From Parcubacteria group bacterium (GTDB taxonomy: Bacteria; Patescibacteriota; Patescibacteriia; UBA9934; GWF2-40-263): a DNA stretch of 64,000 bases. The notes beneath the pieces are model-generated. The model was not told where the DNA came from, ran no database searches, and saw only the letters and a program-made list of their open reading frames with translations. Of this stretch, positions 2,974-44,874 are shown one piece after another (within the stretch, counting starts at the first letter, position 1; the number at the start of each line of letters is the position of its first letter). The stretch spans positions 2,490-66,489 of the forward strand of contig JABMNZ010000017.1 of the NCBI GenBank assembly GCA_013204395.1, read 5' to 3'. The position numbers and the translations under genes were made by a program.

Positions 2974-4209
2974 ATGCAATATCGTGATTTGTTTACAACA
3001 GCATCCGAATCTCTCTTGCGGACAAAGTCACGCTCACTTTTGACTATACTTGGAATTGTGATTGGAATCGGGGCGGTTATTTTAATGCTGTCTATTGGGC
3101 AAGGGGCAGAGAGATTTATTTTGAATCAAGTCGCAGACCTTGGAGCAGATTTGGTTTTTGTTGAGCCAGCAAGTGGAGATCCAACATCCGGACCACCAAA
3201 CCCATTCATTGAACAAACAGTCACATTAGATGATGTAACTGCAATGGAACGGTCTGGGCTTTTCTCTACAATCTCTGCAACTTTGTTGACCACACTTCCG
3301 GTCACTGTGGGGGAGATTAACGAGTTCACGCAACTTCAAGGAACTGATGAGAATTATTTAGATTTGTTTCCAGGAGATTTACAGTACGGGACTAACTTAG
3401 ACGAATCGGATGTTGAGGGGTATGCCAAAGTAGCTGTTATTGGTTCGGAGATCTCTGAAACATTTTTTGGAGATGCAGACCCGGTTGGCCAGAAAATTAA
3501 AATTAAATCGATGAGCTTCAGGGTTGTGGGGGTCATGGAGGAGCAGGGGTCGAGATTCTTTCAAAACTTAGATAAACAAATATCTATTCCGATAACAACC
3601 ATGCAACGCGATGTAATGGGTGTTGATTCAGTGGCTTGGATTACAGCTAGAGCCATTGGCGATGTGGATGAAGTTAAGGAAGAGTTCCGGTGGTTGATGC
3701 GTGACGCCCATGATCTTGATAACCCAGAAGGAGATCCAAGCAAAGACGATTTTTTCGTAAGCTCACAGGATGACGCCACAGAAATGGTTGGGGTAGTTGG
3801 TGGTGTGCTTACCGTGCTGTTGTCATCCATCGCAGCGATCTCTCTGCTGGTTGGTGGTATCGGTATCATGAACATTATGCTTGTGTCGGTTACAGAGCGC
3901 ACAAGAGAGATTGGTTTGCGTAAGGCTGTGGGCGCGACTTACAAAGAAATCATGCTTCAGTTTTTAGTCGAGAGTGTTTTGCTAACTCTCTTGGGTGGAC
4001 TACTTGGGGTCCTCGGTGGGGTTACAATTTCATATTTGGTTGGTTGGGTTTTGATTGAATATTTTGTTGCAGATTGGACGATTGTAATTCCACCAAACGC
4101 CATAGCCCTGGCGGCAATTGTTTCAACTATTGTTGGTTTAGTCTTTGGGATTTATCCAGCTCGTAACGCGGCAAGGTTGAATCCAATCGATGCACTGAGG
4201 TACGAATAG
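2974..4209 (+). CDS. ABC transporter permease, FtsX/MacB family with periplasmic domain
   Basis: N-terminal TM, a large extracytoplasmic domain, and a C-terminal FtsX-type three- to four-TM bundle (LLVGGIGIMNIMLVSVTERTREIGLRKAVGA). Confidence 0.75.
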   Translation: MQYRDLFTTASESLLRTKSRSLLTILGIVIGIGAVILMLSIGQGAERFILNQVADLGADLVFVEPASGDPTSGPPNPFIEQTVTLDDVTAMERSGLFSTISATLLTTLPVTVGEINEFTQLQGTDENYLDLFPGDLQYGTNLDESDVEGYAKVAVIGSEISETFFGDADPVGQKIKIKSMSFRVVGVMEEQGSRFFQNLDKQISIPITTMQRDVMGVDSVAWITARAIGDVDEVKEEFRWLMRDAHDLDNPEGDPSKDDFFVSSQDDATEMVGVVGGVLTVLLSSIAAISLLVGGIGIMNIMLVSVTERTREIGLRKAVGATYKEIMLQFLVESVLLTLLGGLLGVLGGVTISYLVGWVLIEYFVADWTIVIPPNAIALAAIVSTIVGLVFGIYPARNAARLNPIDALRYE

Positions 4210-31323: not shown

Positions 31324-32667
31324 ATGATGATCTATATACGGTGCATCAGCCTTTTTGATGTAATTGAAATAGGTAATTCATTAAAAAAAGACATTATGCA
31401 ACAAGATATCAAGATCCAATACGTTCCGATCACAAGTCTTAAATCAGCCGAATATAACCCTCGCTCCTGGGACGATTCAGCTAAAGAAAAGCTCAAAGCG
31501 AGCATTAAGCAACACGGTTTTTGCGATCCTGTGATCGTGAATAGTTCACTGGAGCGGAAGAATATCATCGTTGGTGGTCACTTTAGTACTGAATGCGCGA
31601 AGGAGCTTGGTTTTACAGAAGTTCCTGTCGTTTACGTTGAGTTAACACTAGAGCAAGAGAAGGCTCTCAACTTAAGATTAAATCGTGTTTCTGGAAGTTG
31701 GGATTTTGAACTCTTGAAAGAATTCGATATTGATCTTCTTCTTGATGTCGGGTTTGACGACACAGATCTTTCCAATATTTGGGACGATATTCTGTCGATC
31801 GAAGACGATGACTTTGATGTTGAAGGAGCTGTAGATGAAATAAAAGAACCAACAACTAAACTTGGTGATCATTATCAGCTTGGAAATCACAGGCTTCACT
31901 GCGCGGACTCGACAGATTTGGAGTCTGTGAAACGACTTGTAGGTGATCAGAAAATTGACATGGTTTTTTGTGACCCTGTCTACAATATTGGATTCAGTTA
32001 TAAAGACGGACTGACGACGAAAGGAAAATATGGAGGTAAAGCAAATGACACGAAATCAGATGAGGATTATCGGAACTTCATCAAAGCTTCGATGGAGAAC
32101 GCTCTGTCTGTAGCAAAACCTGATGCTCATGTCTTCTATTGGTGCGATCAGAAATACATTGGGCTTATGCAGTCGCTGTATGCAGAACTTGGCGTTGCGA
32201 ATAAGCGTGTGTGTATGTGGATCAAGAATAATTTCAACATGACACCTCACATCGCTTTCAACAAAGCGTACGAGCCATGTGTGTATGGAACGATCGGGTC
32301 GCCTTATCTTAATCCTGACGTCACAAACATTCATGAAATCGTGAATAAGGAGGTTGCTTCTGGGAATCGGTGCCTTTCAGACATTATCGACTTATTCGAT
32401 ATTTGGCTCGCTAAACGAGATAACGGAAATGAGTACGAGCATCCGACGCAAAAGCCGTTAACGCTTTGTGAGAAGCCCTTGAGGCGTTGTACGAAGCCAG
32501 GGGACAACGTCCTAGACTCTTTCGGTGGTGGCGGTAGTGTGTTGTTGAGCTGTGAGCAGATGAAGCGGAAGGCATTTTTGATAGATATAGATCCGATTTT
32601 CTGTGATGTGATAATTCGCAGGTTCGAGGAGATGACCGGAATCAAGGCTATTAAAATTAACGACTAA
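31324..32667 (+). CDS. ParB-like nuclease N-terminal domain fused to N4/N6 DNA methyltransferase (phage/plasmid-type orphan MTase)
   Basis: ParB-N region (DPVIVNS...IIVGGH) followed by motif IV DPVY and motif I FGGGGS in a beta-class MTase. The true start may be the ATG at 31396. Confidence 0.7.
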   Translation: MMIYIRCISLFDVIEIGNSLKKDIMQQDIKIQYVPITSLKSAEYNPRSWDDSAKEKLKASIKQHGFCDPVIVNSSLERKNIIVGGHFSTECAKELGFTEVPVVYVELTLEQEKALNLRLNRVSGSWDFELLKEFDIDLLLDVGFDDTDLSNIWDDILSIEDDDFDVEGAVDEIKEPTTKLGDHYQLGNHRLHCADSTDLESVKRLVGDQKIDMVFCDPVYNIGFSYKDGLTTKGKYGGKANDTKSDEDYRNFIKASMENALSVAKPDAHVFYWCDQKYIGLMQSLYAELGVANKRVCMWIKNNFNMTPHIAFNKAYEPCVYGTIGSPYLNPDVTNIHEIVNKEVASGNRCLSDIIDLFDIWLAKRDNGNEYEHPTQKPLTLCEKPLRRCTKPGDNVLDSFGGGGSVLLSCEQMKRKAFLIDIDPIFCDVIIRRFEEMTGIKAIKIND

Positions 32668-32670
32668 ACT

Positions 32671-33423
32671 ATGGATATCAAAACCGGAGATATTATCAGG
32701 CTTGGAGATCACTATCTTTTCTGCGGAGATTCAACAAAACGAGAGAGTGTAGAAAAGCTACTGAAGGACAGAGAGATCGATTTAATCCTGACAGATCCTC
32801 CGTACGGAGTGGCCTACGTTGAAAGTAAGGAAGGTTTTACACAAACGATCGCAAAACCGAAAATCATTAAAGGTGACGAGATTCAAACGGAGGCGAATTA
32901 TCGGAGCTTCACTTGTGCGTGGCTCACGCAGGCTCAGCCTTTCATGGCAAACAAAAACTCTGTCTACATCTTCAACTCGGACAAGATGGTCTTTGCTCTG
33001 CGTGAAGGTTTCCTGCAGGCTGGATTCAGATTCACACAACTCCTTATTTGGGCAAAGACTCACGCGGTGGTGGGGAGGATGGATTACTTGCCTCAGCACG
33101 AACTAATTATGTACGGCTGGTATGGCACGCATAAGTTCCATAAGTCTAAAGATAAATCCGTACTCATATATCCAAAACCAAACAAATCGAAATGGCATCC
33201 TACAATGAAACCTATTGGTTTACTTCGGAGGATGATTCTGAATAGCTCAAAGGTGGGTGACACGGTTTACGATCCCTTTGGAGGGAGCGGATCAACCCTT
33301 TTGGCATGCGAGCATACGAACCGTAGGTGCGTCATGATAGAGATCGATTTAGAGTATTGCCAAACGATCGTGATGCTTTGGGAGATGTTTACTAAGCAGA
33401 AAGCAGAAAAGGTCTATGAATGA
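32671..33423 (+). CDS. N4/N6 DNA methyltransferase (beta class)
   Basis: Motif IV DPPYG, then motif I DPFGGSGST; C-terminal ..IEID.. region. Confidence 0.75.
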   Translation: MDIKTGDIIRLGDHYLFCGDSTKRESVEKLLKDREIDLILTDPPYGVAYVESKEGFTQTIAKPKIIKGDEIQTEANYRSFTCAWLTQAQPFMANKNSVYIFNSDKMVFALREGFLQAGFRFTQLLIWAKTHAVVGRMDYLPQHELIMYGWYGTHKFHKSKDKSVLIYPKPNKSKWHPTMKPIGLLRRMILNSSKVGDTVYDPFGGSGSTLLACEHTNRRCVMIEIDLEYCQTIVMLWEMFTKQKAEKVYE

Positions 33424-33865
33424 ACATATCCCATCACCGTATCCTGCGGTGGCAGAACGACAGGATAAGCAAAAAGAGCTTGTTATTGAACAGCTAAAGA
33501 AAACGCCGATCATTCAGATTGTGTGCGAGAAGGTTGGAATATCACGCGCGACATTCTACAGATGGAAACAAGACGACCTGGTATTCGCAGATGCACTTGA
33601 ACATGCAATCTTTATGGGCGTTGAGCTTGTAAACGACATGGCAGAGTCACAGTTATTGTCGGCGATTCGTGATCAGAATATGACAGCCATTATCTTCTGG
33701 CTGAAGCATCGACACCGATCATACGGGACACGCGTTTCGTTGGATGCCAATCTAAACGTAAACAGAAGCTTGAGTACAGAGGAGCAAGAGACAATCAAGA
33801 AGGCTTTAAGTCTCGCGAAATTAATTCCTGAAAGCATTGCGTATGACGAACAAGAAACTGAGTGA
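33416..33865 (+). CDS. Putative terminase small subunit (HTH protein)
   Basis: HTH (VGISRATFYRWKQ) immediately upstream of and overlapping the terminase large subunit gene. Confidence 0.45.
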   Translation: MNEHIPSPYPAVAERQDKQKELVIEQLKKTPIIQIVCEKVGISRATFYRWKQDDLVFADALEHAIFMGVELVNDMAESQLLSAIRDQNMTAIIFWLKHRHRSYGTRVSLDANLNVNRSLSTEEQETIKKALSLAKLIPESIAYDEQETE

Positions 33866-35330
33866 TCAGATACTGCAGGACAAAGGTATCCGTACAGGGC
33901 TGACAACGGGAAGTCATATGTGGTTCTTTCATACCTATATCAGCGATTATGTGCAGTATCCGACGGCGCCATTTCAGAGACAGTTCTTTGATATCACCGA
34001 AGACACCTCAACCAAGCTCGTCGTCTTAACAGCGTTTCGTGGATCGGCGAAGTCTACAATATTCACTATGTCGTATCCGATTTGGGCGATTCTTGGAAAA
34101 CAGCAGAAGAAATTCGTTTTGATTTTGTCGCAGACTCAGTCGCAGGTAAAAATGCATCTTGCAAACTTAAAGCGTGAGCTTGAGTCAAATAGATTGTTGC
34201 GCCAAGACCTGGGACCATTCGAAGAGCAAGATGAGGAATGGAGTTCTGGAACGATTGTACTTCCGAAGTATGGAGCACGCATCACCGCGCTCTCTATGGA
34301 GCAAGGAGTTCGAGGATTGCGCCACGGGTCGCATCGTCCCGATATTATCATCTGTGACGACATCGATGACATATCATCTGTAAAGACAAAAGATTCACGG
34401 GATAAAGTGTGTAACTGGTTTTTGGGCGATGTCGTCCCAGCAGGAGACACGGATACGCGCATTATTGTTGTTGGTAACTTGTTGCACGAGGATTCGCTGA
34501 TGATGAGGTTGAAAAATCAAATTGAATCAGATCAACTGGATGGATCGTTCTTTTCGTTTCCCATTGTAGATGAGATAGATAAGCCTATCTGGCCAGGAAA
34601 ATTTAGGAAGCCAGAAGATCTCTTGAATCTGAAGAGGAAAATCGGGAACGAGGTCGTATGGCAACGGGAGTATATGCTTCGCATAATATCCAATACAGAT
34701 CGCGTAGTGCATCCCGAATGGATTCAATTTTATGACGAGTTACCAAAGCTCGCTGGAAATGTTGAACTGCGAGGGATCTATAGCGGGGTGGATCTGGCTA
34801 TCTCTGAAAAGACATCAGCTGATTACACCGCGATAGTCACTGTTGCCGTTTACGTTGTCGACAAGGAAGTTAAAATCTACGTCTTCCCAAACCCAGTGAA
34901 TCAACGACTGACATTTCCGAAAACTGTAGAACGCATAAAGATGCTTTACGACAACATCCATGAGAGTAATAGTAGAAACAAGATCTATATTGAGGATGTT
35001 GGATATCAGAAAGCCCTCATACAGCAACTTGAAATGGAGCGCTTGCCCGTTGAAGGCGTCGGGGTTGGCGGTACAGACAAAAGATCCCGCATCGCGCTCA
35101 CAAGCCCACATATCGAGTCTGGAAAGGTTTTATTCCCCAAGAAGGGGTGTAAAGATCTGATCATGCAGTTAGTCGATTTTGGTGCGGAAAAAAATGACGA
35201 TTTGGCTGATGCATTTTCCATGGTAATTAATAAGGCTGTCACAATAAAATACTGCACATTCGGAATCTGGGACTTGAATCAGGATGTAGGACCCATGATT
35301 GTTGGAGACATTATGAATAGAAGGTTCTAG
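33837..35330 (+). CDS. Phage terminase large subunit
   Basis: Terminase Walker A (AFRGSAKST), Walker B (IIICDDIDD), C-terminal RNaseH-like nuclease (GVDLAISEKTSADYTAIV). Confidence 0.75.
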   Translation: MRMTNKKLSDQILQDKGIRTGLTTGSHMWFFHTYISDYVQYPTAPFQRQFFDITEDTSTKLVVLTAFRGSAKSTIFTMSYPIWAILGKQQKKFVLILSQTQSQVKMHLANLKRELESNRLLRQDLGPFEEQDEEWSSGTIVLPKYGARITALSMEQGVRGLRHGSHRPDIIICDDIDDISSVKTKDSRDKVCNWFLGDVVPAGDTDTRIIVVGNLLHEDSLMMRLKNQIESDQLDGSFFSFPIVDEIDKPIWPGKFRKPEDLLNLKRKIGNEVVWQREYMLRIISNTDRVVHPEWIQFYDELPKLAGNVELRGIYSGVDLAISEKTSADYTAIVTVAVYVVDKEVKIYVFPNPVNQRLTFPKTVERIKMLYDNIHESNSRNKIYIEDVGYQKALIQQLEMERLPVEGVGVGGTDKRSRIALTSPHIESGKVLFPKKGCKDLIMQLVDFGAEKNDDLADAFSMVINKAVTIKYCTFGIWDLNQDVGPMIVGDIMNRRF

Positions 35331-35383
35331 CAACCTACCTAAAATGTAGGGCCTAGACTTACCCCACCGTAGCGGTATGTTGT

Positions 35384-36679
35384 GTGCATATGGAAGGTCT
35401 CGAAACAACTGCACTACATTACGTCTTATACGCGCGAAAATCGTCCGAAGCAGAGGAGAGACAGGCTTTGTCGATAGAGTCGCAGGTTAAGGAGATTTCA
35501 GCCTTTGCAGAGCAACAGGGGCTCACAATCGTGGAGATAAAGAGAGAAAGCCATTCCGCAAAGGATACAGGGCAGAGGAAGGTGTTTAACTCCATGATCC
35601 AAGGTCTTAGAGACGGCAAGTACCAGGGAATCGTCACATGGGCACCAGACAGGTTGAGTCGCAACGCAGGCGATCTTGGAGCGCTGGTTGACCTTATGGA
35701 CAGCAAGAAGCTTCAACAGATCAGAACACCAAGCCAGATGTTCACCAACTCTCCGAGCGACAAATTCCTGCTCATGATCCTGTGCTCGCAGGCCAAGCTC
35801 GAGAATGATAATAAGAGTGTGAATGTGAAGCGCGGACTACGTGCCAAGTGCGAGTTGGGTGTGCGTCCAGGCGTTGCGCCGCTTGGGTATCTTAACAATC
35901 CAAATCAGACAAAGGGACAAAGGAAGATAAATCTAGATCCAGAACGCGCGCATGTCATAAAAGAAATGTTCGAGCTAGTTGCAGAGCATGGATACAGTGG
36001 GCGCGACTTGTTCGTGTGGATCAATAAGGAAACGGGAATGCGTACACGTGGTGGAAAGAAGGTGTCGCTAAGTTCGATCTACCGCATGCTAAACACGCCG
36101 TTTTACTACGGTGAGTTTGAGTACCCACGAGGTGGGGGAGTATGGTACAAGGGCGACCACGATCCGTTAATATCAAAAGAGTTATTCGAGAAAGTACAGA
36201 AGCATTTAGACATACCGACTCGCGAAAAGAAAAGGTCTCACACGTTCAACTACACAAGGCTCATACGTTGCGGGGACTGCGGGTCGTTTGTGTCTGCTGA
36301 TCAAAAAATTAAGACATTAAAGTCTGGTGAGCAAAAGCATTACATCTATTACAGATGCTCTCGTGGTCGCGATCGTTTCTGCGCTCAGCCTCCGATCACA
36401 GAGGATGATCTTGTCGGCGAGATGTACAAAGTCTTCGATCAAATTAAGCTGGATGAAAAGAAACTCACACAAAATCTCAAGCGTGAGTTTCTTAAATACC
36501 GAAACTTCATGAGGGATGTATTCGGAGCAGAAGTTGCGCGTCAAAGCGATGACAAGCTGAATGTGAATGCGTACGCGCAGTACTTGCTCAAGACAGGATC
36601 GCGCGAGGAAAAGCGGGAGTTGCTTAAAAGCCTAGAAACTAAGCTCGTTCTTCAGAGTAGATGTCTAAATATCCCTTGA
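35384..36679 (+). CDS. Large serine recombinase (phage integrase-type)
   Basis: Resolvase catalytic domain with YARKSS catalytic Ser, a recombinase domain, a C-terminal zinc ribbon (CGDCGS...YYRCS) and coiled-coil. Confidence 0.8.
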   Translation: MHMEGLETTALHYVLYARKSSEAEERQALSIESQVKEISAFAEQQGLTIVEIKRESHSAKDTGQRKVFNSMIQGLRDGKYQGIVTWAPDRLSRNAGDLGALVDLMDSKKLQQIRTPSQMFTNSPSDKFLLMILCSQAKLENDNKSVNVKRGLRAKCELGVRPGVAPLGYLNNPNQTKGQRKINLDPERAHVIKEMFELVAEHGYSGRDLFVWINKETGMRTRGGKKVSLSSIYRMLNTPFYYGEFEYPRGGGVWYKGDHDPLISKELFEKVQKHLDIPTREKKRSHTFNYTRLIRCGDCGSFVSADQKIKTLKSGEQKHYIYYRCSRGRDRFCAQPPITEDDLVGEMYKVFDQIKLDEKKLTQNLKREFLKYRNFMRDVFGAEVARQSDDKLNVNAYAQYLLKTGSREEKRELLKSLETKLVLQSRCLNIP

Positions 36680-36778
36680 AAACAGCTTGTTTTAGAGGTA
36701 TGGTGGTTGACAGAAGTCCATTTTTCTGCTACATTTAGCCGTTGTTCTTTACTATCTATCAAGTTCCAATATCTCTTG

Positions 36779-36822
36779 AGAGTGGCGTTTTGCAGTTAGT
36801 GCAGACTTCAAAACGCCACTCT
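36779..36822. repeat. Perfect 14-bp inverted repeat with 16-nt spacer between recombinase and DGR target
   Basis: agagtggcgttttg ... caaaacgccactct. Confidence 0.4.
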
Positions 36823-36902
36823 TAATGAACAAAGGCAGGTTTCCGTGAGCGCATAGGGTGCGAACGGTGGCTAGTCGGAGTTGGCACAAGGAGGCAGGTC
36901 TT

Positions 36903-37730
36903 ATGGCCGGTCCCGATCCTGACCAGAACGCTGAGTTCTGGCGTCGTTTTCGCCGCTTCGGCGGCACCGATCCTACCATGAAGGAGCTCCTCGGAGACGA
37001 TGAGCTCATGGAGTGGTGGATCACGTCGCTCAACGAGCGACGCAACTCCAACCCGTTCGAGATCTCTGTGAAGGAGTCCCTCGATCGTCTGCGAGCCGCC
37101 TACGACGACACCTTCTGTCCGCTGGGCGCGAAGGAGCCGACGTCTTCGGAGCTCACTCACCTCGAGCGTATGGCGCCCAACTGGCCCAAGGGCAAAGACG
37201 CCTTCCGCAGCTTCCAGGTGCGGCCGGCGGCCTTCGGCGAGGGTCGCGATGGGGTCATCAATACCTTCGAGGCGACCTGCGCGAGCGTCAAGCTCATCCA
37301 CGACCCCAAGTTCTGGCGATGGGAGTTGCTCCTCTCGGGAGCGCATCCGTACCAGGGCGAGGACGTGGAACGCCTGCGACTACTGGGCGGCAACGAGCGC
37401 CACACTCCGGGGGTCTGCTGGGTCACCTTCAATCTGTCGGAGGGTCGGCAGCGCGCCGATGTCACGTCCGTGCGAAGCGGTCGGTCACTCTCGGACGCCG
37501 GGATCTTCGCTGCGCGGATGTTCCCGGATCGCGCCAAGGCGATCGACTACGAGAAGAAGCCGGCTTGGTTCTGTGCTGGCTACGAGTTGAACGTCCCCGA
37601 GCGCGCTGATGAGCCGTGGCAGTACGTGCCCTGCGTGCACCGCAACGTGCGCTACGGCACGGTGCCCCTGCGCGCCCACTGGCGCGGCGATGCCAACTCG
37701 CGCTACTCGGTGCCCTCCGTCGGGGAGTAG
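36903..37730 (+). CDS. DGR target protein carrying the C-terminal variable repeat (VR); G+C-rich islet gene 4
   Basis: AAGGAGG Shine-Dalgarno 8 nt before the ATG at 36903; the ORF is open from 36858. Its last ~130 nt match the downstream template repeat except at template adenines. Confidence 0.7.
   Translation: MAGPDPDQNAEFWRRFRRFGGTDPTMKELLGDDELMEWWITSLNERRNSNPFEISVKESLDRLRAAYDDTFCPLGAKEPTSSELTHLERMAPNWPKGKDAFRSFQVRPAAFGEGRDGVINTFEATCASVKLIHDPKFWRWELLLSGAHPYQGEDVERLRLLGGNERHTPGVCWVTFNLSEGRQRADVTSVRSGRSLSDAGIFAARMFPDRAKAIDYEKKPAWFCAGYELNVPERADEPWQYVPCVHRNVRYGTVPLRAHWRGDANSRYSVPSVGE
37592..37724 (+). repeat. DGR variable repeat (VR)
   Basis: About 133 nt, matching 38161-38293 with roughly 18 mismatches, all at positions where the other copy has A. 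Confidence 0.8.
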
Positions 37731-37862
37731 GCACTGGGAACTTGAACGCTTTGCGCTCGGAGGTTCTTGGGACTTGTCTCTTGACCCTTCGTTCGCGAAG
37801 CGAACTCGCCACGAAAAAGCGCACGCGCTCTACGTGGCACTGCGGCATCTGGAAAACGCTCA

Positions 37863-37897
37863 ATAGAAGAGTGTCACTCCCAGGTGCCGCTCTTCTA
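37863..37897 (+). terminator. Hairpin downstream of the DGR target gene
   Basis: atagaagag ... ctcttctat (9-bp stem, 17-nt loop) followed by tttcaa. Confidence 0.3.
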
Positions 37898-38160
37898 TTT
37901 CAACAATCTTTGATAAACTAGTAGTGGAAAGTAGGTCAGTGAGCCCGTGTTTAAGAATACTGGTCACCGAAATCTCTTGTTTCCCAATATACCGGCAGAG
38001 TTTCATTGTTCACGGATAATGAAAGTGTACGGTGGGACTAACAAGCACTCCGCATTTCATCTTGGAATCAACCTTCAGTGAAGGAGTGAGTTCCGCATAA
38101 AATTCAGAAGTCGGATGCGTCTGACTTTGGTGTCATGGAAGGGTGAAGTGTAAAGTGAGG

Positions 38161-38293
38161 CGTCCCCGAGAACGATAATGAGCCGTGGCAGAACGTGCCC
38201 TGCGTGAACCGCAACGTGAACAACGGCACGGTGAACCTGAACGCCAACTGGCGCAGCAATGCCAACTCGAACTACTCGGTGCCCTCCGTCGGG
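38161..38293 (+). repeat. DGR template repeat (TR)
   Basis: Non-coding copy of the VR that is enriched in AAC triplets; every VR/TR difference maps to a TR adenine. Confidence 0.8.
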
Positions 38294-38339
38294 AGTTCTT
38301 GTGTAGCAAAGAAGCGCTCTATCGCGCTTCTTTGTCTTC

Positions 38340-38714
38340 CTAGTTCTTTTTGAGATCCTCCTGAGTGCGTTTGATCCAGCCACCTAGCATCTTTCCTGTT
38401 TCAATAAGTCTGGACTCAATGTGGAGATATTGATTGTTCCCAATGCACTTGCAGTCCTTGGATAGTCGTACAAGGAGTTTAGTAAGATCAAGTTTTGCGC
38501 TTGCTTGTTGCAGAGTCGTTAGCTTCTCCTGGTCTTTGGTACTTGCGCTGGCGGTAAGGACCAATTCAAGCACCGTCAGAGCATGAAGCGAGACGCGTTC
38601 ACCCAAAGTGTATCGTTGTACTTTTGGAAACTTTACTATGATCTCATTCCACTCAGCATAAATATCGTATAGCGTATGAGCAATTGGGATATCACCAGGA
38701 CCGCCTCTGAGCAA
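38340..38714 (-). CDS. avd: Avd-like DGR accessory protein (four-helix-bundle, 23S-rRNA-IVS protein family)
   Basis: Family-typical segments (VKFPKVQRYTLGERVSLHAL ... GKMLGGWIKR). TTG start. Lies between TR and RT on the opposite strand. Confidence 0.7.
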   Translation of the reverse strand: MLRGGPGDIPIAHTLYDIYAEWNEIIVKFPKVQRYTLGERVSLHALTVLELVLTASASTKDQEKLTTLQQASAKLDLTKLLVRLSKDCKCIGNNQYLHIESRLIETGKMLGGWIKRTQEDLKKN

Positions 38715-38733
38715 CTTTCGATCTTTCCTAATA

Positions 38734-39735
38734 ATGCGGGGGGGGGGGAGAAATAGGCGTCCTCATAGGTTGGATAGTTATGATTTGTTTTCACGGATCA
38801 CTTCAATAGAAAACCTTTTTATCGCATGGGAACGTTTTCGTAAAGGTAAGCGAAGTCGCCAAGACGTAATGTTATTTGAACGCCATCTTGAAGACAACTT
38901 GTTTGCCCTACAAGCCGAACTTGCCTCAGGTGCTTACCAGCATAGTCCCTACGAGCGATTTACCATCCACGACCCAAAACAACGTACTATTCACAAGGCC
39001 GATGTAAAAGATCGCGTTGTCCATCAAGCCATTGTGAATGTTATCGAGCCCTTATTTGAGAAGCGATTCATTTATGACAGTTATTCATGCCGTGTAGGAA
39101 AAGGTACGCATGCGGCGGTGAAGAGGCTGAGGACGTTCTTGCTCAGAGATAGTATCAACAATATAAAAACAGTCTACGCTCTCAAATGTGACATTCAAAA
39201 GTTTTTCGCGAGTGTGAATCATCGAAAGCTTCTTCATCTTCTTGAAAGACACATTCACGATCCCGAAACCATGAAGCTGCTTACTGGTGTCATTGAAAGC
39301 TTTTCTGTTTCGCCTGGCGTGGGAATACCTCTGGGCAATCTCACAAGTCAATTATTCGCAAACGTGTACCTTCATGAGTTGGATTGGTTCGCGAAGCAAG
39401 AACTAAAAGTGCACCACTACGTTCGGTACTGTGACGATTTTGTGTTGCTCGCAGAATCCCAGGAAGAATGTGATGTATTCACTGAACGAATTGAGATGTT
39501 TCTTAAAAGTCATCTCCACATGCATCTGCATCCAAACAAAGTACACGTGAGGACCTGGAGGCAGGGTGTAGATTTTCTCGGATATATATTGTTACCACAC
39601 ACGACCATTTTACGACCGTCTACAAAGAAAAGGATGATCCGCAAAATCAACAAGGACAATGCAAGTTCGTACCTTGGTTTGTGTCAGCACGCAAACGCCT
39701 TTGATCTTGAACGAATGTTAAAGAACCTAGTTTGA
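38734..39735 (+). CDS. DGR reverse transcriptase
   Basis: RT motifs including the DGR-characteristic IPLGNLTSQLFANVYLHELD and catalytic YCDDFVLL. The ATG at 38734 is followed by a G11 tract; TTG at 38770 or 38785 are alternative starts. Confidence 0.85.
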   Translation: MRGGGRNRRPHRLDSYDLFSRITSIENLFIAWERFRKGKRSRQDVMLFERHLEDNLFALQAELASGAYQHSPYERFTIHDPKQRTIHKADVKDRVVHQAIVNVIEPLFEKRFIYDSYSCRVGKGTHAAVKRLRTFLLRDSINNIKTVYALKCDIQKFFASVNHRKLLHLLERHIHDPETMKLLTGVIESFSVSPGVGIPLGNLTSQLFANVYLHELDWFAKQELKVHHYVRYCDDFVLLAESQEECDVFTERIEMFLKSHLHMHLHPNKVHVRTWRQGVDFLGYILLPHTTILRPSTKKRMIRKINKDNASSYLGLCQHANAFDLERMLKNLV

Positions 39736-40137
39736 TACCGATTCTCGCATTCCTATATTTCCGTAGTCTTCCCCCCGGGACTTCTCTGTTGCACATGATT
39801 CTCTACCTTGACAGCCTGCTCTTTTGCGACAGGATTCGGTTTGGATTCCTTGACCCTAGGTTTCTTTTTTGATGAGTCTATGGGGCTACTTGGTTTTTGG
39901 GAAGCTATCGATCGTGGAAGCTGGATAGAAATTCTGCTTAGATTTTTTAGGGTAATCAGAAATTATTTCAGAACAAACTCGTTGACTGATTGCTACTGAT
40001 AAAATATCTGCAATTTGAATATGAGTTCGCATACTTGTATATGCATGATTGGATCATTATTATTCTTTTGAACTGTTTGGAGAGTTTATCAAACTAAAAA
40101 TAATTGACTTATATTAATGGTTTTGGGATTCCAATGA

Positions 40138-41115
40138 TCAACCCTTGATAATACCTTTTTTTGCGAATCGTTCTAAAAGTTGTTTGGCTAGAAAAATCGC
40201 ATAATCAATATCTTGATCTTCTGTCATTTCAAAATAACTAATATCTTGATTCCAATGCTCCATACTTTTCTCAACATATTGAACTTGTTTTTCAGGATCG
40301 TTTACGTCTTTAGGTTTAGTCCTCGTCATGTCCATGCGTACTTTCGATTTATAGATATGAATTGCAACAACATTTACATTTCCAATTTTGTAACCAATAT
40401 ATTGTTTTGTAGGTGCTTCTTCAAAACGAGAATCTAAAGATAGTAACTTATCTCGCAAAGAATCAAATAAATCGTGAGAGTTATTCCAATCAGATTTGAA
40501 ATGATCAGCTACGGTGTAGGTTTTCACCTCACGACTAACCTTACTCACAGTTTCATCTTTTGTAACTGTCTTTATTGATTCTGCTGTATGGATGGCTTTG
40601 ATCGGATTGTATGAAAATAAGCTGTTCTCATATTTTCGAACCTCCCACAATTCGATCGGTAAATCCTTGAAGTTTATTGCCTCGCGCTGATGTGTCGTGA
40701 AGCTGTGGGCAAGGAATAGAACACGTGATTGTGACCAATCTATATCGTCGCGTTTTAGACTGCCTTGCATCTGCTCGTTATACTCTAGGATAAAATCTGC
40801 CTTGTTATTGAGCATAAGTGCGAGGTATGCAAAACCTTGGTCTACTACACTAAAACTTTTGTCACGCTTGTACTCAATAATCACAAAAGCACTCGTCTCT
40901 GTATCGAATGCTAGCGTATCTATCCGGAGATTATTTAGTTGAAATTCTGTCGCAACGAACTTTAGGTTAAATACGGTTTCAATATTATTCTCCGTCAATT
41001 CTTGCAGATCTTTTTCAAGTCCAATCTTCAGCTCTCGGACAGTTTCTAAATTATTCTTTGATTGTTTAAATACAGGCATAGTATTCACATTATTGCAGAA
41101 AATACACTTACCCAC
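40138..41115 (-). CDS. Putative PD-(D/E)XK-fold nuclease-like protein
   Basis: N-terminal RIDTLAFDTETSAFVIIEYKRD matches a D...E.K nuclease core; C-terminal domain unknown. Confidence 0.4.
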   Translation of the reverse strand: MGKCIFCNNVNTMPVFKQSKNNLETVRELKIGLEKDLQELTENNIETVFNLKFVATEFQLNNLRIDTLAFDTETSAFVIIEYKRDKSFSVVDQGFAYLALMLNNKADFILEYNEQMQGSLKRDDIDWSQSRVLFLAHSFTTHQREAINFKDLPIELWEVRKYENSLFSYNPIKAIHTAESIKTVTKDETVSKVSREVKTYTVADHFKSDWNNSHDLFDSLRDKLLSLDSRFEEAPTKQYIGYKIGNVNVVAIHIYKSKVRMDMTRTKPKDVNDPEKQVQYVEKSMEHWNQDISYFEMTEDQDIDYAIFLAKQLLERFAKKGIIKG

Positions 41116-41172
41116 AATGTGAAGTAACTAAAAACTCCTTATCAAAAGGAGTTTTTAGTCTGCGTGTAAAGT

Positions 41173-41748
41173 CTAAAATCCAAGACTTATCTTAGCTTCT
41201 TTGCTTCCAAAAAGTGATAGATCGCCAACGATCAAAGAAAATCCCTCAGCATCAGCTGGAACTTCGTACACATCTGCAAAGGTGAACGGTAAGTTTGGAT
41301 TGAGGTTTTCTAAAATAAAAAGCTGTTCAGCACCTAGGTTCTTAAAACTGCTTGATGAATTTGTAAATTCACGACCCTTATTATCGACAAGTTTTAGATT
41401 CGACGTCGACTTCATGTCACTTCCTAGATTTTCAACAGTTGCGTTTATGACAATAAATTTTCCTTGAGTCGTCTCTGATCCACCAAAGGCTCCAGAAAGT
41501 GATGTTTTAGAATAGGCGTCTGTGACAACCCATTTTACTTCTCCTACCGTTACTTCATCGTTCAATGAATAACTCACCGTTGCTTCGCTTTTGTTTGAGT
41601 CTCCTGATGAGCCTGTATTAGAAGTTGGACTGCTATCACCACCAATTGCACCGATGAAAATAAAGAAGATTATCACCGCACCGATACCAGTGAGAATCTT
41701 GTGTTTTGCGAACCAGTTTTTACTGGAGTCTCTTGAATCTTTGCTCAT
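41173..41748 (-). CDS. DUF4352-like membrane-anchored extracytoplasmic protein
   Basis: N-terminal TM, Ser/Gly linker, then a beta-sandwich domain resembling DUF4352 (FIVINATVENLGSD...). Confidence 0.45.
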   Translation of the reverse strand: MSKDSRDSSKNWFAKHKILTGIGAVIIFFIFIGAIGGDSSPTSNTGSSGDSNKSEATVSYSLNDEVTVGEVKWVVTDAYSKTSLSGAFGGSETTQGKFIVINATVENLGSDMKSTSNLKLVDNKGREFTNSSSSFKNLGAEQLFILENLNPNLPFTFADVYEVPADAEGFSLIVGDLSLFGSKEAKISLGF

Positions 41749-41854
41749 ATTTTTGCGTAGGGATTAATTGATATTGCTCAGGAACACAAAAGGCCTCCCT
41801 GAACTGACGGCAACAATCTTTCGAAAGCTACCCCGAGCCCTTGCGGAACTCGAC

Positions 41855-41902
41855 CCTACGCAAATAGATGTCAGCCAAGAAGGCCGTCAATATTTGCGTA
41901 GG
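41855..41902. repeat. 12-bp inverted repeat with 24-nt spacer
   Basis: cctacgcaaata ... tatttgcgtagg. Confidence 0.3.
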
Positions 41903-42256
41903 TGTTGCCATGCTCACAGGACGTGAGTTTAGGCAATTTGTATTGATATAGTAGCTTACAATCTTATTACCGTAAAGATATTCTGTGTACTGAAAGTTAA
42001 AAACAGGGAATGGGATTCGAACCGAGATTCTTCTCTCACCTTAGGGACGAAACAGGATTTTGGACAAAATGACCGACGGTGGGACTCGAACTTTTTCCGA
42101 ACCGAAAGCGACGAACAAGACGACGACGCACTCGAGTCTCGAACTTGAGCCGTGTGCGTTTTAAGTAACAAAGACGGGTAAAACAAAAGCACTCGACCGA
42201 AGTCGAGGCTCTGTGCAATCTGACGGACATGGGTCGCGTCAGAACTTTTTTGCTTT

Positions 42257-42331
42257 TGGCTCGGGGGGAGGGATTCGAACCCTCGACCCATTGGTTAACA
42301 GCCAATTGCTCTGCCGCTGAGCTACCCCCGA
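42257..42331 (-). tRNA. tRNA-Asn (anticodon GTT)
   Basis: Minus-strand cloverleaf with acceptor UCGGGGG/CCCCCGA, D-arm GCUCAGCGGCAGAGC, anticodon loop CUGUUAA, T-arm GAGGG-UUCGAAU-CCCUC, discriminator G and encoded CCA. Confidence 0.85.
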
Positions 42332-43656: not shown

Positions 43657-43709
43657 GACTCCCGAGGGGGGAGTCAGTGGAACACCGCTTCGTCGCGGTG
43701 TTTTCTATC
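43657..43709. terminator. Two back-to-back hairpin terminators serving convergent genes
   Basis: gactccc-gaggg-gggagtc (minus-strand T-run) and acaccgc-ttcgtc-gcggtgt followed by tttct (plus strand). Confidence 0.5.
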
Positions 43710-44874
43710 TGATCTCACGGAGGTTGCCGCCCCAGTGATGGGTCAGGCAGATCCAGGCGAGATCCTCGATCCAGCTAATGATCTGCAGTCGACCATTGTG
43801 TTGCATCCGACCGAACCCACCGTTTACCGGAAGCGGGATGGTGTCGGTGACGATGAGCTTGGAGATCGGACACCCAGCAGCGGTGAATCGCTCCTCAGCC
43901 TCTCCACAGAGAACGGCATGTGTTGCCGCACCCCATACATCTGCCGCTTCGTTGCCAGCAAGTGCCTTCAGCTCGTCCGTTCCACGAAGTACACGGGCGA
44001 ACTTCATCATTGAGCCAGCGGTGGCAATCTCGTCGTCGAACATGACGGCGATTCTTCCTCGAACCAGTCGAGGGTCGCCAACAATGCCGACGATCTTGGT
44101 CTCTGTTGCACTCAGACGTCGTTTGAGTGCCGTGACGTCAGGGAACGTGAGCCCCATCTCAAGCTCGATTGCACCACGTGCTGTATCAAAGCGCTTGCGT
44201 GCACTGTCGTCTGGGAAGACGAGACACAATCGTTCCGGATCCGGCACCAAAGAGATGACGTGCTTGAGCACGCGCCGAGTGAGGTACACAGGAGTGACCT
44301 GCCCAGGTCTTCCGACCATGGAGATCTGCTCGCTGTGCGGATCGACGCAGATCCACCGGTGCAGTCCAACGGCTCCACATGCTGCTTCTACCAGCGCCAT
44401 CAGCATGGGCGGCATGGTCAGCTCGGTGTCACCCTCGTCCTTGTCAGAGCGACACAGTGGGAAATAGCCGGTGATGAGCGTGATGCGAGCGGCGTGACGA
44501 CCTCCGACATACGAGAGCGTCCAGAAAAGGTCCATGAGCATCTGGTCCGTTCCGGGACCTGTGGTGATGACCATGACGTCGTGCTCGCGGACATGACGAC
44601 CACCGAGCCTTACGAACGTCTCTTTGCTGGGACGACGACTGAAGTCCGGGGTAGCGATGTCTACGGGCGTCAGTCTCTCGCCGGGTCGACGTCCGCGCTC
44701 TTCAATGAGCCTTGCGACGCTTTCTACCACGGGCTGAAAACTCGGAGTTCCAGGTACCAGGGAAAGTCCACCAACCCTGTTGAAGGGGGGGGCGCTTCCA
44801 TCTCTTGTACGCGCGGAGCCAAACGGACTCATCGCTCGACAGGCCCAGGATTCCTGTTGCCCGCTTGATTGCAT
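43705..44874 (-). CDS. Ribose-phosphate pyrophosphokinase (PRPP synthetase)-like protein; G+C-rich islet gene 5
   Basis: Prs-like N-terminal region (LSLVPGTPSF ... RLGGRHVREHDVMVITT), VDPHSEQI and the PRPP-binding loop MFDDEIATAGS. Strong GC3 bias. A C8/G8 tract sits in the N-terminal region, so the start is uncertain. Confidence 0.6.
   Translation of the reverse strand: MQSSGQQESWACRAMSPFGSARTRDGSAPPFNRVGGLSLVPGTPSFQPVVESVARLIEERGRRPGERLTPVDIATPDFSRRPSKETFVRLGGRHVREHDVMVITTGPGTDQMLMDLFWTLSYVGGRHAARITLITGYFPLCRSDKDEGDTELTMPPMLMALVEAACGAVGLHRWICVDPHSEQISMVGRPGQVTPVYLTRRVLKHVISLVPDPERLCLVFPDDSARKRFDTARGAIELEMGLTFPDVTALKRRLSATETKIVGIVGDPRLVRGRIAVMFDDEIATAGSMMKFARVLRGTDELKALAGNEAADVWGAATHAVLCGEAEERFTAAGCPISKLIVTDTIPLPVNGGFGRMQHNGRLQIISWIEDLAWICLTHHWGGNLREIR

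Follow-up and report, generated by a model that had tools for sequence, protein, structure and literature searches.

The 64,000-nt stretch of Parcubacteria DNA analyzed here, hereafter the window, carries a diversity-generating retroelement (DGR), in which a target gene ending in a variable repeat (VR) is followed by a template repeat (TR), an avd gene and a reverse transcriptase (RT) gene. Here we describe its genes and repeats, a structured RNA predicted upstream of TR, and a simple repeat at the junction of avd and RT. The core of the cassette comprises the following features, where ORF stands for open reading frame and coordinates are those of the window.

36858–37730, plus strand: DGR target gene taken from the ORF list, 290 aa, with VR at its 3′ end
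37592–37724, plus strand: VR, an ungapped 133-nt match to TR at the 3′ end of the target ORF
38161–38293, plus strand: TR, aligned to VR without gaps
38340–38714, minus strand: avd ORF in the assembled phase, of 124 aa when read from TTG 38714, Pfam PF22296
38734–39735, plus strand: DGR RT, starting from ATG 38734 (through a G tract, in frame at 11 G) or from TTG 38770

Genes, repeats and layout class

The element is a DGR by its repeats, its adjacent RT and the position of VR at the 3′ end of the target. TR and VR differ at 18 of 133 positions, and all 18 mismatches are adenines in TR, which implies past activity of the element. Both repeats have a common GC-rich 3′ end, GGTGCCCTCCGTCGGG, which resembles an initiation of mutagenic homing (IMH) element, and VR ends 6 nt before the target-gene stop codon. 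The target gene had no family match in Pfam or NCBIfam. Further copies of TR or VR, or a second target, were sought throughout the 64-kb window and none was found; a second GC-rich island (43705–44874) was considered as a further target and ruled out, as it is a phosphoribosyl pyrophosphate (PRPP)-synthetase-like gene.

The first-pass annotation, made from the letters alone, had placed an avd homolog on the minus strand between TR and RT, which it took to be about 440 bp apart. Both statements are borne out. The TR-to-RT distance is 440 bp, and the minus-strand ORF matches the Pfam family bAvd (PF22296) with an E value of 5.7e-16 and 59.4 bits (cutoff 40) over profile positions 15–106 of 107. 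An N-terminally extended form matches the NCBIfam model DivGenRetAVD (NF033474) with an E value of 4.5e-21 and 75.1 bits, slightly below the cutoff of 80, and homologs in Patescibacteria are annotated as Avd or as four-helix-bundle protein. A plus-strand Avd-like ORF in 38300–38730, which would have overturned this arrangement, was not found: that segment holds no plus-strand ORF longer than 52 aa, and the sole tblastn match to Avd lies on the minus strand. The avd stop codon occupies 38340–38342, leaving a gap of 46 nt from TR; in relatives the gap ranges from −12 to +52 nt.

The RT matches RVT_1 with an E value of 3e-22 and contains the motif GNLTSQ in its translation. Its best NCBIfam match is a group II intron RT, under the cutoff. 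Placement in the DGR clade rests on RVT_1, on the GNLTSQ motif and on homologs that adjoin TR/VR pairs, of which there are more than 100 at 42–84% identity. Relatives of the RT found in a species-level genome collection come overwhelmingly from metagenome-assembled genomes (MAGs) of Patescibacteria: Uhrbacteria are closest at 73% identity, followed by Saccharibacteria, Parcubacteria and others.

Wu et al. 2018 (NAR 46:11; PMC5758913, Fig. 5 and text) described architecture B3 as ‘TR-(avd)-RT’, where parentheses denote the reverse strand, and found it in 90% of their set from the candidate phyla radiation (CPR). [quoted passage not shown]

Relatives were typed by tblastn with the window Avd and by a repeat search that looks for adenine mismatches. 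Among the first 48 related loci in which both avd and a TR/VR pair were detectable, 36 have TR on the plus, avd on the minus and RT on the plus strand, and the co-directional cases are the most distant relatives. A larger set of 149 RT loci, mostly from Patescibacteria genomes and including 80 metagenome loci, contains a divergent avd and RT pair in 119 and a co-directional avd in 12. Given the published definition, the Patescibacteria affinity of the RT relatives, the 36 loci of the same order and strands, and the 119 divergent pairs, the window cassette is a B3 element. It is thus a new member of a standard, catalogued layout of Patescibacteria (CPR) DGRs and not a new subclass. Thus the layout, which the first-pass annotation had called non-canonical and had proposed to compare with DGR catalogs, does differ from the paradigm of the Bordetella phage, but is a recognised and clade-typical one.

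Incidentally, two loci of the larger set (L048 and L050) are ordered (avd)-RT-TR. Their TR follows RT, the leader model described below does not match them, and they represent a different solution inside the same RT neighbourhood. GC content is also distinctive: the target gene is at 0.66 vs 0.45 for avd and 0.44 for RT, and the target exceeds avd and RT in 30 of 31 related B3 loci (mean 0.56 vs 0.37).

A structured leader upstream of the template repeat

Between VR and TR lie 436 bp, and this interval is uniformly 330–470 nt long in B3 loci. A hidden ORF was sought in the interval of B3 loci and none is conserved, the stop-free stretches being short and their strands inconsistent. Despite the lack of a conserved ORF, the DNA itself is conserved among B3 loci. 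The following features were found in the interval and around TR.

37741–37783, plus strand: CTTG(G/A) direct repeats 3′ of VR, with copies at 37741, 37766, 37773 and 37780
37862–37899, plus strand: hairpin AATAGAAGAG / CTCTTCTATT, read from the sequence, between the target gene and a promoter-like box
37911–37919, plus strand: box TGATAAACT resembling an extended −10 element, a candidate promoter for a TR-containing RNA
37926–38160, plus strand: structured leader RNA of about 235 nt abutting TR, conserved and covarying
37941–37949/37959–37965, 38000–38008/38017–38025 and 38107–38112/38123–38128, plus strand: leader helices, the last one an inner helix
38041–38051 and 38052–38061, plus strand: contiguous leader strands X and Y, respectively
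38142–38151, plus strand: pre-TR strand GGTGAAGTGT, 9 nt before TR, pairing with strand Y, GCATTTCATC
38292–38302, plus strand: TR 3′ boundary segment GGAGT-T-CTTGT, pairing with strand X, ACAAG-C-ACTCC
38307–38334, plus strand: stem-loop in the interval that separates TR from the avd stop codon, a candidate 3′ stem-loop of the DGR RNA and/or plus-strand terminator

The leader was aligned across 33 loci (alignment A2). The alignment predicts 39 base pairs, 35 of which show compensatory changes. Paired cells amount to 91.6%, vs 60% when columns are shuffled and 40–52% when partners are slid, and the covariation score is 0.93 vs 0.17–0.25 in these controls. A covariance model, R1, was built from the 3′ domain of the leader. 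Its single match in the window is at 38033–38153 (53 bits, E value of 3e-9). R1 matches 100 of the 119 divergent loci and none of the 12 co-directional ones, always once per locus, on the RT strand and directly upstream of TR; the divergent loci that it misses are mostly truncated contigs or the two (avd)-RT-TR variants mentioned above.

An Rfam search of 36500–40200 at E ≤ 1 returned no family for the leader or for the hairpin flanking TR. The same search gave a weak match to RAGATH-12 at 40055–40128 (24 bits, E value of 0.078, against a gathering score of 75), outside the cassette in an AT-rich gap after RT, which is probably a chance match. Nothing relevant on DGRs with covariation or non-coding RNA was found in the searchable literature, a scope that, here and below, does not include the Paul et al. 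2017 survey of CPR DGRs; an upstream structured leader that brackets TR is apparently undescribed.

How the leader brackets TR is seen in two helices. First, strand Y forms a helix of 10–12 bp (A2 columns 240–251/399–410) with the pre-TR strand, and 11 of 12 pairs in this helix have changes on both sides. Cognate duplexes average −15.7 kcal/mol vs −7.7 kcal/mol for non-cognate ones (p < 5e-5), and the helix is recovered in a single-sequence fold of the window. Second, strand X pairs with the 3′ boundary of TR. This pairing is maintained by compensatory variants, namely ATGAG:CTCAT in L010, GATGAG:CTCGTC in L007 and ATCGAG:CTCGAT in L078; AT-rich loci have duplexes of 11–18 bp, and those of L049 and L030 measure 12–18 bp. 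Its cognate energy is −11.2 vs −8.3 kcal/mol for non-cognate duplexes (p < 5e-5), weaker than for the Y helix. Because one continuous leader strand, X plus Y, pairs with both flanks, TR would protrude as a loop from a long helix.

The spacer downstream of TR (Sp) in the RNA of the Bordetella phage makes two adjacent duplexes, template:primer and ‘cPRT Stop’ (Handa et al., bioRxiv 10.1101/2023.10.23.563531). By analogy, X and Y would take the priming and stop roles, and from the comparison of B3 loci we infer that the spacer function of B3 elements sits upstream of TR. If so, the DNA after TR would be free to encode avd in either direction.

The leader would be transcribed from its own promoter. 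In nearly all B3 loci, a TGnTAnAAT-like box precedes the conserved 5′ end of the RNA by a short and constant distance, and it corresponds to the box at 37911–37919 in the window. Just upstream of it, alignment of relatives places a GC hairpin and a T-run, the latter often present, at the site equivalent to 37862–37899, and this hairpin likely marks the end of target-gene transcription. Further upstream, CTTG occurs on average 3.3 times per 90 nt after VR vs 0.55 in shuffles (34 loci, about 6-fold), with a spacing of 7–8 nt; downstream of TR, no CTTG(G/A) repeats are seen. At the analogous place, the Bordetella phage has IMH-proximal target-recognition elements (see the introduction of PMC5758913). 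The CTTG repeats could mark the retrohoming target.

On the other side of TR, the first-pass annotation had pointed out a hairpin with a 10–11-bp stem at the shared 3′ boundary of TR and avd, and this hairpin proved well supported. Its stem consists of 11 Watson-Crick pairs and a single G-U pair (12 bp in total), and its loop is 6 nt long. It begins 14 nt past TR, and its other end lies 6 nt short of the avd stop codon. Its folding energy is −19.9 kcal/mol with z = −5.2, and 0 of 200 shuffles fold equally well. Strong hairpins of unrelated sequence occupy the equivalent position in relatives. When B3 loci were scanned within 90 nt after TR, a plus-strand terminator-like signature, i.e., a stem followed by a T-run, appeared in 23 of 37 vs 4.9% of background windows (about 13-fold), and a minus-strand signature, which would serve avd, in 6 of 37. 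Where the gap between TR and avd is small, the terminator lies inside the 3′ coding end of avd, in several cases with a canonical T-run. For 207 of 278 DGRs, Handa et al. predicted Avd-binding stem-loops at a site directly 3′ of TR. The window hairpin may serve both as a terminator and as an Avd-binding element.

These features bear on whether TR is transcribed together with RT. The first-pass annotation noted that any TR-RT co-transcript would be antisense to avd. In a co-transcript model, TR and RT would be transcribed together from a promoter upstream of TR, the antisense of avd would act as a Bordetella-like downstream spacer, and the hairpin would only bind Avd. The Bordetella spacer is indeed downstream of TR, and the 207 of 278 DGRs with predicted downstream stem-loops are also reported to have upstream/downstream duplexes and include CPR members. 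Moreover, the promoter scan identified no independent promoter for RT. A discrete RNA has several points against it as well. The box at 37911–37919 was not called by a two-hexamer promoter scan and rests on the comparison of loci. X and the TR 3′ boundary pair modestly: in just 5 of 27 cases is the cognate partner the best in its row, and the single-sequence fold does not recover this pairing. The standard terminator scan did not call the hairpin at 38307–38334, the T-tail of which is weak; it passes a relaxed scan alone (8-bp core, 5 T in 8), where passing relatives often have 7 T in 8. Finally, a terminator-like signature is missing from 14 of 37 B3 loci, so transcription may read through antisense avd and on to RT.

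Nevertheless, a co-transcript fits less well with terminator-like hairpins enriched directly after TR, some of them with canonical T-runs within avd itself, or with a TR-to-avd gap that shrinks to −12 nt in some loci. The expected pairing is also missing: between the 40 nt upstream of TR and the 100 nt downstream, i.e., antisense avd, there is no cognate-specific pairing (p = 0.49), whereas both flanks of TR pair with the upstream leader. We therefore regard the co-transcript as unlikely. The promoter-like box, the structured leader, the terminator-like hairpins after TR and the lack of cognate downstream pairing together favour, at the level of sequence, a discrete RNA made up of leader, TR and stem-loop.

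A simple repeat at the junction of avd and RT

The avd and RT genes are arranged head to head, and two features lie at their junction.

38738–38748, no strand assigned: 11-G/C homopolymer tract at the head-to-head junction
38715–38766, minus strand: probable native 5′ end of avd, from ATG 38766–38764 through the C tract, +1 out of frame as assembled

A simple repeat, either poly-G or (GA)n/(CT)n, is present at the junction in 62 of the 119 divergent loci. The density of such tracts is 2.85/kb at the junction vs 0.029/kb elsewhere in the same loci, a difference of about 100-fold. Where no repeat is present, the start codons of avd and RT stand back to back (CATATG). Tract length differs between contigs of relatives whose flanks are 100% identical over 256–400 bp: 9 G in L078 and 10 G in L079, 8 G in L135 and 9 G in L137, and 10 G in L112 and 9 G in L115. 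No paper on DGRs with repeat-mediated phase variation or homopolymers was found in the searchable literature, and a hypervariable repeat at the avd and RT junction is apparently undescribed.

The 64-kb window has just one other long homopolymer, an 8-G run (44785–44792) inside the GC-rich PRPP-synthetase-like gene. In Parcubacteria-like loci (e.g., L017 at about 4024–4044, and L091), the two genes share a conserved 21-nt head-to-head overlap, ATGAAAATTCAATTGAGCCAT, which encodes MKIQLSH of RT and, on the other strand, MAQLNFH of Avd, so that each start codon is a His codon in its partner.

The first-pass annotation started avd at TTG 38714, with a control region of about 20–55 bp between the divergent genes. 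That TTG is the first start codon in the assembled phase, and the gaps are as stated (19 bp from TTG 38714 to ATG 38734, and 55 bp to TTG 38770), but the native start of avd is probably ATG 38766–38764 instead, as judged from several lines of comparison. The TTG is replaced by CTG in L007 and L053. Conserved residues (E/D-R-K-L-L) are encoded upstream of it. The repeat-free locus L010 has an in-frame upstream ATG for avd. Five loci (L007, L013, L017, L049 and L053) have no canonical start between the upstream stop codon and the avd core. Database homologs of Avd carry poly-Pro N-termini (P0003, P0004, P0010 and P0015), as expected of an in-frame tract. Lastly, among contigs with identical flanks, avd is in frame in L137 and L115, and out of frame in their counterparts L135 and L112.

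In the window, the long avd from ATG 38766–38764 runs into a stop codon at 11 C and would join the avd frame at 10 C (MRTPISPPPRIIRKDRK-LLRGGPGD...). Another relative, L091, is likewise out of frame at 11 G. If ATG 38734 of RT and ATG 38766 of avd are both used, the genes overlap head to head by 33 bp including the tract. The divergent control region is therefore better read as an overlap or abutment of start codons with a hypervariable repeat in it. The closest RT relatives (L069–L072) likewise read through the tract, from GTG, on inspection. We also note that two Avd proteins, P0004 and P0005, differ solely at their N-termini (MTPPPRLNREERTLL... vs MNSDTPPRLNREERTLL...), which is expected from a tract-length change at one locus.

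The frame analysis is thus consistent, although indirectly, with on/off switching of avd. Several points count against such a switch. In the window's subgroup, 11 G put RT read from ATG 38734 in frame whereas the long avd needs 10 G; from those starts, one phase excludes the other, so TTG 38714 or TTG 38770 may be used after all. Across loci, about one third of the phases are in frame, one third need −1 and one third need +1, and a non-coding tract predicts the same. The tract lengths come from consensus assemblies, and homopolymer length in short-read assemblies carries some error. An exact-flank scan of metagenome contigs and an exact look-up of the RT product found no same strain with another tract length; the polymorphism is thus demonstrated in relatives and not in the window's own strain.

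Two other accounts of the tract were weighed. According to one, the tract is no translational switch but an element for promoter spacing or in the 5′-UTR (untranslated region), or a tolerated hotspot, with avd starting at TTG 38714 and RT at TTG 38770. The evenly spread phases and the frame conflict in the window's subgroup agree with this. So do gene callers, which often start homologs at ML(R/Q)GGPGD, and the TTG itself, which is found at the position of 38714 in the window, L006, L009, L010 and L031. The same TTG is however CTG in two loci; the five loci without a canonical start before the avd core, the amino-acid conservation upstream of TTG, the in-frame upstream ATG of the repeat-free L010 and the poly-Pro stretch of in-frame homologs all argue for translation through the tract. 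We consider this account rather unlikely, although less so than the co-transcript.

According to the other, the cassette is decaying: avd would have lost its start by a homopolymer frameshift, leaving an inactive DGR with a layout that has no function now. The long avd ORF is in fact +1 out of frame at 11 C, and the locus sits in an apparent prophage or island remnant beside a tRNA-Asn gene. However, the adenine-restricted differences between VR and TR imply past activity, avd remains open for 124 codons with full-length similarity to bAvd, and RT is intact. Out-of-frame states also recur in many relatives beside in-frame variants with identical flanks, to which reversible switching is a better fit. 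Decay is, in our judgment, very improbable.

Weighing these together, we think it probable that the core of this CPR-type B3 DGR is run as separate transcription units, with a leader-TR RNA and a slippage-prone junction of avd and RT. The first unit would be the target gene, ending at the hairpin at 37862–37899. The second would be a self-contained RNA of about 410 nt starting from the box at 37911–37919 and made up of the leader of about 235 nt, the 133-nt TR and the stem-loop at 38307–38334, which would end transcription and/or bind Avd. In this RNA, X would pair with the TR 3′ boundary and Y with the segment 5′ of TR, with TR looped out, and the Sp-like strand, being upstream of TR, would free the downstream DNA for an oppositely oriented avd. 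The third unit would be avd and RT, head to head, with starts that abut or overlap across the slippage-prone repeat of 11 G. Tract length would set the frame of the avd ATG, so that Avd, and hence hypermutation, could be switched stochastically; in the window assembly, avd would be one base out of frame.

More tentatively, and with somewhat less than even confidence, the same may apply to all B3 elements: the scaffold for priming and stopping would have moved upstream of TR, giving a circularly permuted, self-contained RNA gene that has a promoter and a terminator to itself, and Avd and RT would be under a slipped-strand switch that makes hypermutation phase-variable. Neither a permuted DGR RNA nor a phase-variable Avd or RT was found in Rfam or the searchable literature.

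Genomic context and comparison with known systems

The cassette lies in a small island (31324–42331) flanked by housekeeping genes. Besides a ParB-methylase, a second methylase, and DUF5655 and DUF4352 proteins, the island contains the following, with the tRNA gene as its boundary.

33837–35330: terminase large subunit
35384–36679: serine recombinase
42257–42331: tRNA-Asn

The ORFs that flank the cassette are those of the serine recombinase, the terminase, DUF5655 and DUF4352. The island looks like a remnant of a prophage or integrative element in a CPR-like chromosome.

The layout itself adds nothing new, being the usual CPR cassette catalogued in 2017–2018. [quoted passage not shown] An upstream leader that covaries and brackets TR, as in over 100 loci, offers an RNA model, both concrete and testable, for the most abundant class of ‘microbial dark matter’ DGRs. 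It also suggests that DGR RNA is permutable, which would be useful for engineering. If the proposed switch is real, the repeat between avd and RT would be a simple means by which organisms with tiny genomes hold a mutator mostly off, and on in a subpopulation.

The window cassette agrees with B3 as described by Wu et al. 2018 in how TR, avd and RT are ordered and oriented, the target is upstream on the same strand and the relatives are from CPR; there is no difference in layout and no other accessory gene. The words promoter, spacer and intergenic are absent from that paper (PMC5758913); thus, the leader RNA, the terminator after TR and the junction repeat are undescribed there.

The paradigm, the DGR of the Bordetella phage BPP-1, has the order mtd-avd-TR-brt (architecture B1) with all genes co-directional. 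In the window, avd is instead downstream of TR and on the opposite strand. BPP-1 has avd in the VR–TR interval, where the window has about 436 bp of non-coding DNA. Conversely, the roughly 140 nt of non-coding spacer that separate TR from RT in BPP-1, and that pair there with both flanks of TR, have no counterpart in the window, where the interval is filled by antisense avd. When the RNAs are compared, the BPP-1 DGR RNA (the avd 3′ end, TR and Sp, in the bRT-Avd ribonucleoprotein of Handa et al.) likewise has two adjacent duplexes bracketing TR, one with its 3′ end and the other with the segment just upstream, and in both a stem-loop directly follows TR. Past the X duplex, the template would begin with G (38291), the counterpart of which in BPP-1 is TR G117. 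The bracketing strand is however upstream of TR here and downstream, in Sp, in BPP-1, as if the RNA were circularly permuted, and the leader has no sequence similarity to the BPP-1 Sp.

The junction finds its likeness elsewhere. Contingency loci are switched by simple sequence repeats, as in the divergent fimbrial promoters of Haemophilus and the poly-G/C tracts in Neisseria genes. There too, the tract is at the 5′ end of a gene or at a divergent junction, its length varies in otherwise identical sequences, as it does between otherwise identical contigs of relatives of the window cassette, and in-frame and out-of-frame states both occur. Contingency loci control genes for surface antigens or restriction-modification; what would be controlled here is a mutagenesis machine consisting of Avd and RT.

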